The translations under genes were made by a program, and so were the position numbers. From NCBI GenBank assembly GCA_018816985.1, contig JAHIVA010000021.1, positions 1-52,991 of the forward strand: a stretch of 52,991 nt of DNA. The letters are read 5' to 3'. Numbering within the stretch: the first letter of the stretch is position 1; each line of letters starts with the position of its first letter. Positions 44,513 through 49,579 of this stretch are shown piece by piece. Source of the stretch: Patescibacteria group bacterium. Lineage in GTDB: Bacteria; Patescibacteriota; Minisyncoccia; Phycocordibacterales; UBA9973. The notes under the pieces were generated by a model, which did not search any database, was not told the origin of the DNA, and worked only from the letters and a program-made list of their open reading frames with translations.

Positions 44513-47500
44513 ATGTCCGAAGAAACAAAAAATACAAAAAGTGAGACGGCTTTGCGGGAAGAGAAAATTTTGGAGTTCTGGAAAGAAAATAAAATTTTTT
44601 CGAAGACTCTGAGTGCGACGAAGGGGAAAAAAGAATTCATATTTTATGAAGGTCCGCCGACTGCCAATGGTCAGCCAGGAATTCATCATCTGGAAGCACG
44701 AGCGTTTAAAGATGCCATTCCCAGATATAAAACAATGCAAGGCTTCCACGTTCGCCGAAAAGGAGGTTGGGATACCCATGGGTTGCCAGTGGAGCTTCAG
44801 GTGGAAAAAAAGCTTGGATTAAATTCTAAAAAAGCGATAGAAGAGTACGGCATTGCGAAGTTTAATCAAGAATGTAAGGAATCTGTTTGGGAATATCTGG
44901 ATGTGTGGAATAAATTTACTAAACGTATCGGTTATTGGGTGGACCAGGAAAACCCATATGTCACTTATTACAATAATTATATTGAATCTGTTTGGAATAT
45001 TATTAAAAAAATAAATCAACAAAATTTGCTTTATAAAGATTATAAAGTTGTGCCTTGGTGTCCGAGATGTGGAACAGCCCTATCTTCCCACGAGCTCGCT
45101 CAGGGCTATGAAGATGTGAAAGATTTGTCGGTTTATGTGAAATTTAAAGTTATTAGTCCTTCGCAGGGCTCAGGACAAGCAAATATGAATACATATTTGC
45201 TTGCTTGGACAACGACGCCGTGGACTTTGCCGGGAAATGTGGCTTTGGCGGTGGGTGAAAATATTGATTATGTAAAAATAAAAGTTGCAAATAATACAAG
45301 TAAAATTTATATTCTTGCCAAAGAGAGACTTTCAATTCTAACTGAATTGTATGAGGTTATAGAAGAAATAAAAGGCAAAGATTTAATTGGCTTAGAATAT
45401 GAACCATTGTATTCGTTTCTTGCAGATACTATTTCTGAAAATGAAAAACTAAAATTAGAAAAAGCTTTTAAGGTTTACGGAGCGGATTTTGTCACTATTG
45501 AAGATGGCACAGGCGTAGTACATACTGCGGTGATGTACGGACAGGATGATTTTGAACTTGGTACGAAGATTGGTTTACCCAAGCATCACTTGGTGGGCTT
45601 AGATGGAAAATTCTTACTGGGTACTGGAATATTTGCTGGTCGCTTTGTTCGGGACGAGGAAGTGGCGGTAGATATTATTAAAGATTTAGCTCATCGCGGG
45701 CTTCTTCTAAAAAAAGAAAAATTTGAACACTCTTATCCACATTGCTGGAGATGTAAAACAGCGCTTATTTATTATGCTCGTGATTCTTGGTATATCAAAG
45801 TTTCTGATTCAAAAATAAAGGCTCAGATGATTGCCGAAAATAAAGAAATAAATTGGGAACCGGCGCATACTCGGGATGGGCGTTTTGGGGAATGGTTGAG
45901 GGAAATCAAAGACTGGGCGGTTTCCAGAGAGCGATATTGGGGCACGCCCTTACCGGTTTGGGTTTGCGAAACTTGTCAAAAGATTGAAGTGCTGGGAAGC
46001 GTAGAAGAAATAAAAGAAAAAATAAAAAAGTCTGGGAATAAATATTTTGTGATGCGGCACGGAGAAGCGAAAAACAACACTGCTGTCGGTATTCATTATT
46101 ATAAAAATACAGAACATAGTGCTCCTCTGACAGAAAAAGGAAAAGAGCAAGTTTTAGAAAGTTCGAAAAATTTCAAGGAAAAGATTGATTTGATTATTTG
46201 CTCACCATTTGAGAGAGCTAAGGAAACTGCTGAAATAGTTTGTGGACAGATTAATTTTCCGCCAGAGAAAATTATTTATGACAAACGAATTAAAGAATGG
46301 GAAGTTAGTTCTTTTTTTGAAGGGAAAGATAGAGCGGTTTTTAAAAAATATTACGATGCAGGTTATTTAGACAATCCGAAAGAAGTTTTACCGGACGGAG
46401 AAAGTTTTGCTGAAGTAGTTAAACGAGTCGGTGGTTTTATTTGTGATGTAGAAGAAAAATATTTCGATAAAAATATTCTTATTGTCGGGCACAGTGGATC
46501 AATGCGAGCTTTAGATTTTATAGTGAAAGAATTGTCTTTTGATGACCTGTCAACTAGGAATAATCCCTTAACTCTTCTTCAAAATGCTGAGATAAGAAAA
46601 CTTAATTTTGTTCCTCTTCCACATAACACAGATTGCGAACTTGATTTACATAGGCCGTATATTGATGAAATTAATCTAGTTTGTACCCATTCGGCAAGCT
46701 CAGGGCAAGCTTGTGGGGGTAAATTAGTGCGTACTAAAGAAGTGATGGATGTCTGGCTTGATTCTGGTTGTATGCCTTTCGCACAAAACCATTATCCTTT
46801 TGAAAACAAAAAATGGGTGGACGGGACGGGTTATCCGGCTGATTTTATTTCTGAAGCAATTGATCAGACTCGGGGATGGTTTTATACCCTGCATGCTATT
46901 GGTGTATTGATGGGGAGAGGAAAAGCTTATAAAAATGTTATTTGTCTCGGACATTTATTGGATGCAAAAGGAAAAAAGATGTCTAAATCTCTCGGCAATA
47001 TTGTTGACCCATGGGAAGCAATGGATAAATATGGCGTGGATATATTACGTCTTTGGATGTACTCGGTTAATCAACCAGGTGAGTCTAAAAATTTTGATGA
47101 AAAAACAGTGGCCCTGTTGCATCAGCAAGTTTTTGGTTTGCTTTATAATGTGCTTGCTTTTTACGAACTTTATCGGGATAAAAATTTAGAAAAAAACAAT
47201 CACTCAAGATCAAAAAATATTTTAGATATTTGGATTTTAGCTAGACTGGATGAATTAATAGTCCTGACAACTAAGCATCTCGATGATTATAAATTACTCG
47301 AGCCGACTAGGGCCATTCGGGATTTTATTGGAGACCTTTCTACTTGGTACTTGCGTCGCTCTCGAGAAAGAATAAAAGAGGGAGACACAGAAGCAAAAGT
47401 AACTTTGTATTTTGTAATAAAAACATTAACTAAGGTCATGGCTCCATTCGCCCCCTTGGCTTCAGAAGATATTTGGCTTAAACTGAAAACCAAAGACGAT

Positions 47501-48535
47501 AAAGAAAGCGTACATTTGACTGAATGGCCACGGAAATCTTTTAGAATTTTTTCTTTTGGAGAAAATAAATTTTTACGGGATATGGAAGTAGCAAGAAATA
47601 TAGTCACTCTTGGTCTTGAAGCTCGGCAAAGGGCTGGGATCAAAGTTCGTCAACCATTAAATAAGCTGGAGATTATCTCTAGAAAATTATCCGAAGAATA
47701 TCTAAATATTATAAAAAAAGAGTTAAATATTAAAAATATTGATTATGTTTTAAAAATAAAAATAGGTATTCAAAAAGTAAATTTGGACACAACCATTACT
47801 CCTGAATTAAAAGCGGAAGGAGATTATCGTGAATTTATGCGAGAGCTACAAGATGAAAGAAAAAAAATGGGGCTTGCCCCGGGTGATCAAATGCCACTTA
47901 GTATTGAGAAGATATATAAAAAGTATAAAATCATGCCAAGTTTGCAGGAACATATGCTCCGAACAGCAGCTGTGGCGTTTTTAATTTGTGATAATTTTGA
48001 TGAACCTTTGCCGAAAGAAGAAATTGTTACCGCTTGTTTGCTTCATGATATGGGGAATATTATTAAGTTTAAATTAGATTACTTTCCGGAGTTGAATGAA
48101 CCAGAAGGAATAGAATATTGGCAGAATGTGCAAAAAGAATATATTAGAAAATACGGTAAGAAAGAATCTGTTGCTCATACTAAAATTGCCCAAGAAATTG
48201 GTGCGAATGAGAGAATGTTGGAATTAATTAATGCGATTAGTTTTTTAGGTGCTCCCGTTAACCTCTTAGACACAGATTTTAGCAAAAAGGTTGTTGAATA
48301 TTGCGATGAACGTGTGGGTATTTTGGGTATAGTAAACATAGAACAAAGGCTTATGGATTTAAGAAAACGTTATGCGCATCACGAAGGCCACACTCCTGAA
48401 CGCGATGTATTTGAAAATGCTGTAAGACAAATTGAAAAACAAATTTTTGCCAAATGTAAAATAAAACCGGAAGACATAAATGAGGCAACCGTAGCCCCTG
48501 TAATTTCAGAGTTAAGAAATTTCGTGATACGCTAA
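44513..48535 (+). CDS. ileS: isoleucine--tRNA ligase with an internal histidine-phosphatase domain and a C-terminal HD-domain fusion
   Basis: 1340 aa in one uninterrupted frame. IleRS motifs: PPTANGQPGIHHLEAR, WTTTPWTLPGN and KMSKSLGN. The insertion at 46031..46640 contains MRHGEA, SPFERAKETA and VGHSGSMRAL. The tail at 47933..48532 contains EHMLRTAAVAF, LLHDMGN and CDERVG. Confidence 0.88.
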   Translation: MSEETKNTKSETALREEKILEFWKENKIFSKTLSATKGKKEFIFYEGPPTANGQPGIHHLEARAFKDAIPRYKTMQGFHVRRKGGWDTHGLPVELQVEKKLGLNSKKAIEEYGIAKFNQECKESVWEYLDVWNKFTKRIGYWVDQENPYVTYYNNYIESVWNIIKKINQQNLLYKDYKVVPWCPRCGTALSSHELAQGYEDVKDLSVYVKFKVISPSQGSGQANMNTYLLAWTTTPWTLPGNVALAVGENIDYVKIKVANNTSKIYILAKERLSILTELYEVIEEIKGKDLIGLEYEPLYSFLADTISENEKLKLEKAFKVYGADFVTIEDGTGVVHTAVMYGQDDFELGTKIGLPKHHLVGLDGKFLLGTGIFAGRFVRDEEVAVDIIKDLAHRGLLLKKEKFEHSYPHCWRCKTALIYYARDSWYIKVSDSKIKAQMIAENKEINWEPAHTRDGRFGEWLREIKDWAVSRERYWGTPLPVWVCETCQKIEVLGSVEEIKEKIKKSGNKYFVMRHGEAKNNTAVGIHYYKNTEHSAPLTEKGKEQVLESSKNFKEKIDLIICSPFERAKETAEIVCGQINFPPEKIIYDKRIKEWEVSSFFEGKDRAVFKKYYDAGYLDNPKEVLPDGESFAEVVKRVGGFICDVEEKYFDKNILIVGHSGSMRALDFIVKELSFDDLSTRNNPLTLLQNAEIRKLNFVPLPHNTDCELDLHRPYIDEINLVCTHSASSGQACGGKLVRTKEVMDVWLDSGCMPFAQNHYPFENKKWVDGTGYPADFISEAIDQTRGWFYTLHAIGVLMGRGKAYKNVICLGHLLDAKGKKMSKSLGNIVDPWEAMDKYGVDILRLWMYSVNQPGESKNFDEKTVALLHQQVFGLLYNVLAFYELYRDKNLEKNNHSRSKNILDIWILARLDELIVLTTKHLDDYKLLEPTRAIRDFIGDLSTWYLRRSRERIKEGDTEAKVTLYFVIKTLTKVMAPFAPLASEDIWLKLKTKDDKESVHLTEWPRKSFRIFSFGENKFLRDMEVARNIVTLGLEARQRAGIKVRQPLNKLEIISRKLSEEYLNIIKKELNIKNIDYVLKIKIGIQKVNLDTTITPELKAEGDYREFMRELQDERKKMGLAPGDQMPLSIEKIYKKYKIMPSLQEHMLRTAAVAFLICDNFDEPLPKEEIVTACLLHDMGNIIKFKLDYFPELNEPEGIEYWQNVQKEYIRKYGKKESVAHTKIAQEIGANERMLELINAISFLGAPVNLLDTDFSKKVVEYCDERVGILGIVNIEQRLMDLRKRYAHHEGHTPERDVFENAVRQIEKQIFAKCKIKPEDINEATVAPVISELRNFVIR

Positions 48536-48569
48536 GATAGAAAAAATAGTAAAAGAAAAAAATCTGACC

Positions 48570-48603
48570 ATAACACACTTTCGTGATCGCGATGGCATGT
48601 TAT
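48570..48603. repeat. 34-nt quasi-palindrome ATAACAC-N-GATCGCGAT-N-ATGTTAT (upstream copy, overlaps the promoter)
   Basis: ATAACACACTTTCGTGATCGCGATGGCATGTTAT. It matches the downstream copy at 26/34 positions directly and 27/34 inverted, by my alignment. Confidence 0.8.
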
Positions 48604-48606
48604 AAT
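48598..48606 (+). promoter_or_regulatory. extended -10 TGTTATAAT, 6 nt before the ATG at 48613 (leaderless arrangement), embedded in the palindrome
   Basis: TGTTATAAT agattt ATG. Confidence 0.45.
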
Positions 48607-48612
48607 AGATTT

Positions 48613-49098
48613 ATGGAGAACACAGCCCTTGATCACTTAATAGCGTTTTTGCTTTCTGCCCGTTCAACAAGAATATACAGAAAAATATTGTGGGTTAGAA
48701 TGCAGGCTAGGCAAAAATCCATGAACGCCGGATCTTTTAATCAACACATTTATCGTTTGCATAAAAAGGGAATTATTGAGTCTAGAGACGGCAAAATTCA
48801 TATCCATAGAGAAAATCTTTTAAAATTTTCGGCGAAAAATAATTCAATGAAAAATTCAGTGATGAAAAGCATTTTTCCAACTAAAACCGAAAAAATCTTG
48901 ATATCTTTCGACATACCGGAGAAAAAGAAAAAAACCAGGGATTGGCTTAGAAATCAAATAAAATATTGGGATTTTGAAATGATTCACAAAAGCTTATGGC
49001 TTGGGTATGGTCCTTTACCTAAAGAATTTAATGATAGGTTAAAACAACTTGGTATTGAAAAAAATGTCAGAATATTTAAAATTAAAAAAGTGACATAA
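48613..49098 (+). CDS. PaaX-like regulator: winged-helix N-terminus plus a Cas2-like/PaaX C-terminal-type ferredoxin-fold segment
   Basis: I start it at MENTALDHLIAFLL, because the listed GTG at 48583 lies inside the operator-like palindrome. ILISFDIPEKKKKTRDWLRNQIKYWDFEMIHKSLWLGYGPLP fits the PaaX/Cas2 beta-alpha-beta pattern. Confidence 0.55.
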   Translation: MENTALDHLIAFLLSARSTRIYRKILWVRMQARQKSMNAGSFNQHIYRLHKKGIIESRDGKIHIHRENLLKFSAKNNSMKNSVMKSIFPTKTEKILISFDIPEKKKKTRDWLRNQIKYWDFEMIHKSLWLGYGPLPKEFNDRLKQLGIEKNVRIFKIKKVT

Positions 49099-49165: not shown

Positions 49166-49579
49166 ATGAAAACTATTTTAGTTGATGCGATATACGGCTT
49201 TGTTCAAGTTATAAATAATAAATTAACGGGCAAAGATGAATATTTGATTTTTCAAAAAATGTACGAACTTCTTGAAAAATATCCAAATAAAAAAATAATT
49301 TTAACTGGGGCATATGATGAACAGATGGTTAAATTTGGGTTAAATAATATGCCTTATCCTGTTTTTACTCTAAAACATAATCCAGAAAAAACGAATCCAG
49401 AATACTATAATGTAATGCTAAAAAATTTTAATTTAAATAAAAATGAGGTAATTTATTTTGAACATGATATTGACGCAATAAGAAGCGCTGAATCTGTTGG
49501 GATTAATACTTATTATTACGACAAGGATAAAAAAGATTTAGAAAGTTTAAAAGAGTTTCTTGATGAAAATTTAAAATAA
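49166..49579 (+). CDS. small HAD-like protein with a degenerate motif I
   Basis: 137 aa. ILVDAIYG has only the first Asp of DxD. Other segments: IILTGA and YFEHDIDAIRSAESVG. Confidence 0.4.
   Translation: MKTILVDAIYGFVQVINNKLTGKDEYLIFQKMYELLEKYPNKKIILTGAYDEQMVKFGLNNMPYPVFTLKHNPEKTNPEYYNVMLKNFNLNKNEVIYFEHDIDAIRSAESVGINTYYYDKDKKDLESLKEFLDENLK

Follow-up and report, generated by a model that had tools for sequence, protein, structure and literature searches.

An HD-superfamily unit fused in frame to a histidine phosphatase-bearing isoleucyl-tRNA synthetase in a Patescibacteria group bacterium

In the genome of an ultra-small groundwater bacterium of the Patescibacteria group (assembly GCA_018816985.1) we found an unbroken HD-superfamily unit that is joined in frame to a type-2 isoleucyl-tRNA synthetase (IleRS), itself already carrying a nested histidine phosphatase. 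The stretch of DNA analyzed here, called the window throughout, is 52,991 nucleotides (nt) long and represents one entire 53-kb contig (JAHIVA010000021.1). The fused gene lies at 44513..48535 on the plus strand, as do all of its parts given below, and forms a single uninterrupted open reading frame (ORF) of 1340 amino acids (aa) plus stop. Scoring 868 bits with the NCBIfam model TIGR00392 (cut-off 621.4), it is called as ileS at the equivalog level, and Pfam divides it, in this order, into tRNA-synt_1 interrupted by His_Phos_1, Anticodon_1, a partial DUF5915 and HD at aa 1146-1193. The IleRS portion as delimited by tRNA-synt_1, Anticodon_1 and DUF5915 comprises aa 1-1126 (44513..47890) and ends within the C-terminal tRNA-binding domain, while the nested His_Phos_1 insert (PF00300, 88 bits) occupies aa 512-679 (46046..46549). 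It is followed by the HD phosphohydrolase unit at aa 1127-1340 (47891..48532), which was delimited by Pfam, by its stand-alone homologues, by AlphaFold2 (AF2) modelling and by Foldseek, and which at 214 aa matches the length of stand-alone orthologues (213-217 aa). A preliminary description of this DNA, made from the sequence alone, had proposed an HD tail in frame on an IleRS that also contains His_Phos_1; Pfam and NCBIfam bear this out, and we regard the fusion as almost certainly real.

The HD unit and its family

The preliminary description had suggested a search with the Pfam HD model (PF01966), in which the tail alone reaches 30.8 bits and the full protein 26.7 bits against a gathering score of 22 (E-value 3.8e-7). 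The three short motifs on which the original domain call had been based, EHMLR, LLHDMGN and CDERVG, turned out to hold the invariant metal-ligand positions. His1147 as the first ligand (47951..47953), the His1178-Asp1179 dyad (48044..48049) and Asp1265 as the last ligand, located in the Asp1265-x-Arg1267 motif (48305..48313), are found in 101 of 101 aligned relatives as well as in 62 of 62 fused and 98 of 98 stand-alone units (160/160), which is far more than chance would produce. Both N1182 and K1185, which follow shortly after the dyad, and furthermore Y1214, R1267, R1279 and R1286 are likewise invariant in the 62 fused and 98 stand-alone units, and the fused HD units are conserved to the same degree as the split ones. 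Among other Pfam families, HDOD gave a weak match of 20-22 bits, and a precomputed PF13023 match is present in some relatives. Searching the PDB sequences with the single HD tail sequence returned nothing relevant, and the corresponding profile search had HDDC2 (4dmb) as its sole match, with E = 0.003 over the first ~65 residues.

Relatives in the protein database come in two forms. The fused form is represented by 55 clusters of 1280-1385 aa with IleRS, His_Phos and HD, the tails of which are 44-70 % identical to that of the window, while the stand-alone form accounts for more than 600 proteins of about 213-217 aa and 45-79 % identity. An exhaustive profile search at E <= 1e-30 extended this to ~670 clusters at 50 % identity, which with few exceptions are stand-alone proteins of about 215 aa. 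Named sources were Parcubacteria, Paceibacterota, Nomurabacteria and Yanofskybacteria. These entries place the large family of ~215-aa H...HD...D proteins, of which the HD unit is an intact member, in Patescibacteria.

The AF2 model of the HD unit consists of 12 helices, with a predicted local distance difference test (pLDDT) score of 95.5 and a predicted template modelling (pTM) score of 0.92. Its leading PDB matches in Foldseek were all HD-superfamily proteins, ranked with the YqeK diadenosine tetraphosphate (Ap4A) hydrolases 2ogi and 8wmy best, followed by PhnZ, an HDOD protein and YfbR. Since all of these matches are weak (E ~0.02, template modelling (TM) scores mostly <= 0.5), the HD unit would, judging by its predicted fold, represent a distinct HD family.

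Origin of the fusion from adjacent genes

In most relatives of the same genus, HD is a separate gene of ~215 aa that starts 1-5 nt past the stop codon of a His_Phos-bearing ileS, and the search for stand-alone orthologues next to ileS that the preliminary description had recommended was therewith successful. Split and fused loci share the flanking order argS-ileS-HD-PaaX_M-...-recO, plus a 643-aa gene downstream; in one split relative (L004), a full 203-aa HAD gene is located between ileS and HD. The HD proteins of split ileS-HD operons of related Patescibacteria are 52-79 % identical to that of the window. One such operon, from Candidatus Nomurabacteria (GCA_001785985.1, MFVE01000005.1, locus L003), resembles the window in the His_Phos-bearing IleRS, the HD protein and the flanking genes. 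Its two genes are separated by 4 nt and its IleRS has a full C-terminal domain, whereas in the window the stop codon and ~60 residues are gone and both proteins form one chain.

Alignment of fused and split proteins locates this loss precisely. The split IleRS runs ~60 residues beyond the helix 'ELKAEG...RKK.GL.P.D', and the DUF5915 profile is matched up to about position 135-154 of 195 in the window IleRS, compared to 194 of 195 in the split orthologues; the C-terminal tRNA-binding domain of the window IleRS is incomplete. The C-terminal helix that the preliminary description took for the regular end of a type-2 IleRS is present, at aa 1101-1126 (47813..47890, ending ...GLAPGDQ, as located by fused-versus-split column association and by the junctions of the 62 fused proteins), and the complete domain is not.

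In a fused/split pair with 86 % identity between the HD units and 67 % between the IleRS bodies, the fused '...DKMAKSIEDIY' corresponds residue for residue to the stand-alone 'MARKITDIY'. Because this alignment matches Met to Met, the HD gene once started at the Met of '...GD(K/Q)M...', which corresponds in the window to Met1127 (47891..47893) with the fusion junction immediately 5' of it; the junction-spanning sequence of the fused protein reads GLAPGDQMPLSIEK and the junction peptide MGLAPGDQMPLSIEK. The breakpoints, between ...GAY and AAR ATG..., are identical in 17 fused loci and in 62 fused database proteins, and the ancestral ATG is kept in all fused copies. The HD part had originally been placed from Met 47933 onwards. 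Its ancestral start lies 14 codons earlier, and Met1141, encoded at 47933, lies inside the first helix at a position occupied by M, I, S, F or Y among relatives.

The fusion arose by deletion from adjacent ileS and HD genes, with the HD start codon retained. Starting from ileS and HD as neighbouring genes, an in-frame deletion of ~190 nt took the ileS stop codon along with the last ~60 IleRS residues and thereby the end of DUF5915, and the HD gene's own Met survived this deletion as residue 1127.

A model of aa 892-1340 computed from 48 fused sequences (pLDDT 89.8, pTM 0.78) keeps a pLDDT of at least 90 across the junction, and the HD unit is predicted to be fixed rigidly on the remaining IleRS C-terminal helix without a flexible linker. 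For the IleRS part of this model, the best Foldseek match was Priestia megaterium IleRS2 (PDB 8c8v, E = 5e-10), described as IleRS2 'with a fully-resolved C-terminal tRNA-binding domain', and the yeast IleRS-tRNA complex (8wnd) was found as well. These matches assign both the lost piece and the position of the HD unit to the tRNA-binding end of IleRS. The window protein is like these type-2 enzymes in its catalytic core, its anticodon-binding domain and the start of its C-terminal tRNA-binding domain; it differs from them by the nested His phosphatase, the shortened C-terminal domain and the added HD unit.

Distribution and phylogenetic conflict

We surveyed 401 genomes of the window's family, counting as fused any HD match within an open frame of 1175 aa or more. 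The HD gene is present in 148 of the 401 genomes, and fused copies occur in the window's genus only, namely in 16 species-level genomes including the window's own, of ~62 with an HD gene. About 45 more genomes of this genus have the split form and many are devoid of HD. Except for five, the 60 loci of the genus that were examined have HD either joined to ileS or directly behind it; four of these five show no ileS within 4.6 kb, and the fifth lies on a contig that ends too early. The His_Phos insert inside IleRS is found in 385 of the 401 family genomes. This insert is old and fixed and HD is accessory, and the two counts show that the modules are phyletically uncoupled, contrary to the joint function that had been envisaged for them. 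Their co-occurrence was also discarded as a line of evidence, being uninformative for a near-universal insert and a patchy HD gene.

Around the junction, fused copies have a signature of ~37 residues in common (A1101, F1108, M1109, E1111, G1124, K1136 and K1137), in which M1109 is present in 16 of 16 fused copies and V is the commonest residue at this position in split ones. A single clade of fused copies was rejected on either tree. The IleRS-body tree requires 15 changes for 16 fused copies (approximately unbiased (AU) test, p = 1.7e-9) and clusters the fused state no better than shuffled labels do, and the HD tree requires 12 changes (AU p = 7e-60). Over 54 loci, pairwise identities of the IleRS body and the HD unit are nearly uncorrelated (Spearman 0.16), and the HD unit closest to that of the window (69 %) belongs to a locus with an IleRS body of merely 47 % identity. 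Since the two sets of identities are almost uncorrelated, the locus is a recombination mosaic.

As a separate observation, the IleRS-body tree (loci L009-L064) splits this one genus into two deep clades of 12 and 42 loci at about 47 % identity and with 100 % support, which suggests that some members of the genus exchanged their ileS for a divergent copy.

Synonymous codon identity between fused copies amounts to 0.497 in the junction region versus a background of 0.478 and is saturated, and a recent horizontal spread of the junction as a cassette is not supported. The fusion event proposed in the preliminary description is confirmed by the stand-alone orthologues beside ileS; that it was recent, which the description had allowed for, is not evident from these saturated sites. 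A very close fused/split pair (L091/L092) has 75-92 % DNA identity; ahead of the junction, its fused contig extends for 70 nt only. We favour a single origin with recombinational spread over recurrent identical deletions followed by convergent adaptation, as all breakpoints are identical.

Putative function and meaning of the fusion

Taking the evidence together, we consider it fairly probable that the HD unit is a real, catalytically competent and nucleotide-directed hydrolase that was captured from the downstream gene. It would be a putative metal-dependent phosphohydrolase acting on a nucleotide and not on a protein or lipid. The invariant residues of the HD unit form the mononuclear H...HD...D pattern, which is the signature of most nucleotide phosphatases in the HD superfamily (PMC8177086). 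Gene context outside the ileS-linked group is the most informative evidence: in other genera, 17 of 26 HD loci that are not linked to ileS have ndk as the preceding gene or as the one before that, often with CYTH, NUDIX or Maf genes alongside. All of these encode nucleotide-pool enzymes, and since HD sits behind ndk near CYTH, NUDIX and Maf in those genera, it probably acts on nucleotides; this context points to nucleotide metabolism in place of the tRNA-end processing or signalling role considered in the preliminary description. The usual home of the HD gene in sister genera is directly behind ndk, from where it would have moved behind ileS in the window's genus to be fused later in a minority of species; in the window's genome, ndk is located elsewhere.

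More tentatively, and as the likeliest specific role, the HD unit may hydrolyze a by-product or product of aminoacylation beside the enzyme producing it, the putative substrate being either of the Ap4A type (YqeK-like) or of the AMP/nucleoside monophosphate (NMP) type (YfbR/HDDC2-like). Because aminoacyl-tRNA synthetases (aaRSs) make Ap4A and Ndk recycles nucleoside diphosphates (NDPs), a hydrolase of Ap4A or related dinucleoside polyphosphates (Ap4N) would fit both partners, as cleavage of an Ap4A-type dinucleoside polyphosphate would yield NDPs that Ndk recycles. A putative nucleotidase represents the main alternative to such an enzyme. No YqeK or ApaH homologue was found in the window's genome, and TIGR00488, the YqeK model, has no match in the HD tail or anywhere else in that genome.

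A still bolder proposal, which we think doubtful when taken as a whole, combines two elements. The HD unit, alone or together with the His phosphatase, would be an in-cis site by which an aaRS destroys its own nucleotide by-product (Ap4A/Ap4N or another adenylate-derived compound) at the source, and the presence of one junction on many backgrounds would be due to selection for this 'allele' and to short-tract recombination that carried it from species to species within the genus.

YqeK (COG1713; 8wmy, 2ogi, 2o08) is a single-domain HD protein of ~190-200 aa with a similar H / HD / D spacing and acts on a by-product of aaRS chemistry, and it employs two further His ligands, H83 and H109, for a di-iron site (PMC8177086). 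Both of these are missing from the window HD unit, and neither is invariant in the HD family, in which His occupies the corresponding columns in 82 % and 35 % of members. The YfbR, HDDC2 and YGK1 5'-(deoxy)nucleotidases share the mononuclear H...HD...D pattern and profile similarity over the first ~65 residues; their C-terminal half is not alignable with the window HD unit and the fold match is poor (TM 0.28-0.33). Substrate specificity of YfbR is determined by R18, W19 and D77.

Several results weigh against a catalytic, nucleotide-directed HD unit. The Pfam HD profile is matched at positions 3-52 of 116 only, and thus in its first half; HD_3 (PF13023) stays just below its gathering score (22.2 bits vs 22.5, positions 22-62 of 165), and NCBIfam holds no equivalog for the HD tail. 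The resemblance to YqeK is weak (Foldseek E ~0.02, TM 0.45-0.51, 15-17 % identity, root-mean-square deviation 6-8 Å), and in the columns of the extra YqeK His ligands the window has Ser1219 and Asn1250, with His1222 one turn past Ser1219. The 'conserved Arg three residues before the HD-motif His' (PMC8177086) is not at that position in the window HD unit either. Gene neighbourhood is circumstantial, and the fusion replaced part of a tRNA-binding domain, which leaves an RNA-directed role conceivable. Finally, 63 % of the family genomes lack the HD gene, and since all of those still need IleRS, HD is not required for aminoacylation.

The RNA-directed role is the rival that survives best, and we rate it as rather unlikely. 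The HD unit would serve as a 2',3'-cyclic phosphodiesterase/phosphatase, like the HD domain of the CCA-adding enzyme, healing the ends of tRNA(Ile) or other RNA on IleRS, possibly in cooperation with the nested His phosphatase and with the nearby HAD genes of some relatives. Its predicted rigid docking where part of the tRNA-binding domain was replaced would suit this role, as would the HAD gene that separates ileS from HD in one relative and the tRNA-processing enzymes 3wfq and 3wfr among the low-ranking fold matches. These CCA-type matches, however, have a Foldseek probability of 0.14-0.23, and the HD genes of other genera that lack ileS linkage and sit behind ndk with CYTH, NUDIX or Maf speak for a free-nucleotide context. 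Furthermore, the C-terminus of a type-2 IleRS sits at the anticodon end of the tRNA, far from its 3' end.

Internal initiation at ATG 47891 or 47933, which would make HD also or mainly a separate protein and render the fusion equivalent to the split operon, is in our judgement quite unlikely. The product of an internal start would have the N-terminus MPLSIEK. Retention of the ancestral ATG in all fused copies and a GGNGA sequence in front of it in 9 of 17 fused loci would be in line with such a start. Native HD starts of this lineage, though, lack a Shine-Dalgarno-like motif in 46 of 47 cases and GGNGA comprises Gly-Asp codons, so this sequence is not evidence of a ribosome-binding site, and the separately translated product that the preliminary description had allowed for at the in-frame Met shows no sign of one. 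Met1141 is moreover not conserved, the junction is predicted to be ordered and not a linker, and Met1127 may have been retained for structural reasons.

We find it improbable that the HD fold merely replaces the deleted IleRS C-terminal end and helps to hold the tRNA without being catalytic, as in the GlyRS beta subunit. The bacterial (alpha-beta)2 GlyRS beta subunit does provide an aaRS precedent for an HD fold beside an anticodon-binding domain that acts as a tRNA-binding module, and in the part of PMC9908026 that we rely on its HD domain is presented as ancient and universal and as clamping the acceptor stem, with no hydrolytic role described there. In the fused gene, too, part of the tRNA-binding domain was lost exactly where HD is attached. 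Compared with this precedent, the window HD unit is a lineage-restricted capture of a free-standing enzyme that kept its catalytic residues: metal ligands and residues of the phosphate-binding type are invariant in 62 of 62 fused copies, and in other genera HD is free-standing and mostly unlinked to any aaRS. The structural likeness to GlyRS beta is weak as well, with 7eiv_C at TM 0.38 and probability 0.69, ranked 7th and 44th.

Slightly more improbable still is an alarmone or second-messenger enzyme, meaning a small (p)ppGpp or (p)ppApp hydrolase or a cyclic-nucleotide phosphodiesterase (PDE) tied to tRNA(Ile) charging. The small alarmone hydrolase RelH and PDE domains do appear among the fold matches at ranks 12-50, and the weak HDOD match points the same way; they rank below YqeK, PhnZ and YfbR with a probability of at most 0.4, and the NCBIfam scan found no RelA/SpoT-type signature. 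HD enzymes of the PDE type normally have extra His ligands (PMC8177086), which are not invariant in the HD family described here. Nothing hinted at a phage or defence function, the viral fold, PADLOC and PHROGs libraries lying outside the searches made.

An assembly or sequencing artefact, be it a lost stop codon or a chimeric join, is effectively refuted: an independent groundwater sample contains identical fragments, none of which crosses the junction, but the contig of the source run crosses it without variants and its reads show neither heterogeneity nor alternative joints, the same junction recurs in the 62 database proteins and the 17 loci of independent assemblies, and the change is an in-frame deletion of ~190 nt and not a point change.

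Some further observations concern the source genome and the surroundings of the fused gene. The source bin comprises 1.02 Mb in 136 contigs, among which the HD unit is single-copy, and has 8 % contamination versus 0.5-0.9 Mb and about 1 % for its relatives; a strain mix is possible. A groundwater metatranscriptome contig matches window positions 48410-48546, covering the 3' end of HD, with 4 differences and diverges upstream; it is probably the transcript of a related organism and hints at expression of the HD gene in situ. Directly downstream of the fused gene, at window positions 48583-49098, lies a 171-aa PaaX_M / Cas2-like gene (Pfam PF20803, 44 bits), which takes the same position in split relatives. 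It is followed by a 137-aa ORF (49166-49579) matching the HAD_2 profile at 110-175 of 178, its C-terminal third, with 22.3 bits and thus below the gathering score; this ORF may be a short or degenerate HAD. The ndk genes of the family (source genome contig C23:18964-19491, minus strand; L056, L066 and L068) are ORFs of 196-218 aa matched by Pfam NDK at about 1-51 and 60-133, so that an insertion seems to split the NDK domain. In the fused relative L091, a second, unrelated HD gene of 188 aa (L091:1364-1930; DUF4202 plus a weak HD match) is located between a metallo-beta-lactamase-fold gene and recO, two genes past the IleRS-HD fusion.

In the literature we searched, an IleRS with an HD or histidine phosphatase domain is not described, and public records label the fused proteins as 'isoleucyl-tRNA synthetase', 'class I tRNA ligase family protein' or 'hypothetical protein'. 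New here are the exact anatomy of the fusion, the partial loss of the tRNA-binding domain and the restriction to one genus within the family sample, as well as the mosaic, polyphyletic fused state, the linkage of HD to ndk and the uncoupling from His_Phos. The case is that of an aaRS with an appended domain together with an uncharacterized HD subfamily. Appended domains are common in aaRSs and are nearly always RNA-binding, editing or regulatory, and an essential bacterial aaRS with two unrelated phosphohydrolase domains, both apparently active, is unusual.

For the HD family, which is widespread in Patescibacteria and uncharacterized, the loci form a Rosetta-stone series, from unlinked behind ndk to adjacent to ileS to fused, that ties it to IleRS. 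The partial loss of the IleRS tRNA-binding domain raises the question of how tRNA(Ile) is recognized, and one junction over incongruent IleRS and HD trees offers a clean case of intragenic recombination in uncultured, ultra-small bacteria. If the substrate cleared by the HD unit is Ap4A or some other adenylate-derived nucleotide, a function for which minimal-genome hosts devoid of YqeK and ApaH would provide the setting, the turnover of an alarmone would be tied directly to the enzyme class that makes it, and should the by-product indeed be destroyed in cis, this would be the first known aaRS to carry its own alarmone-clearing enzyme.

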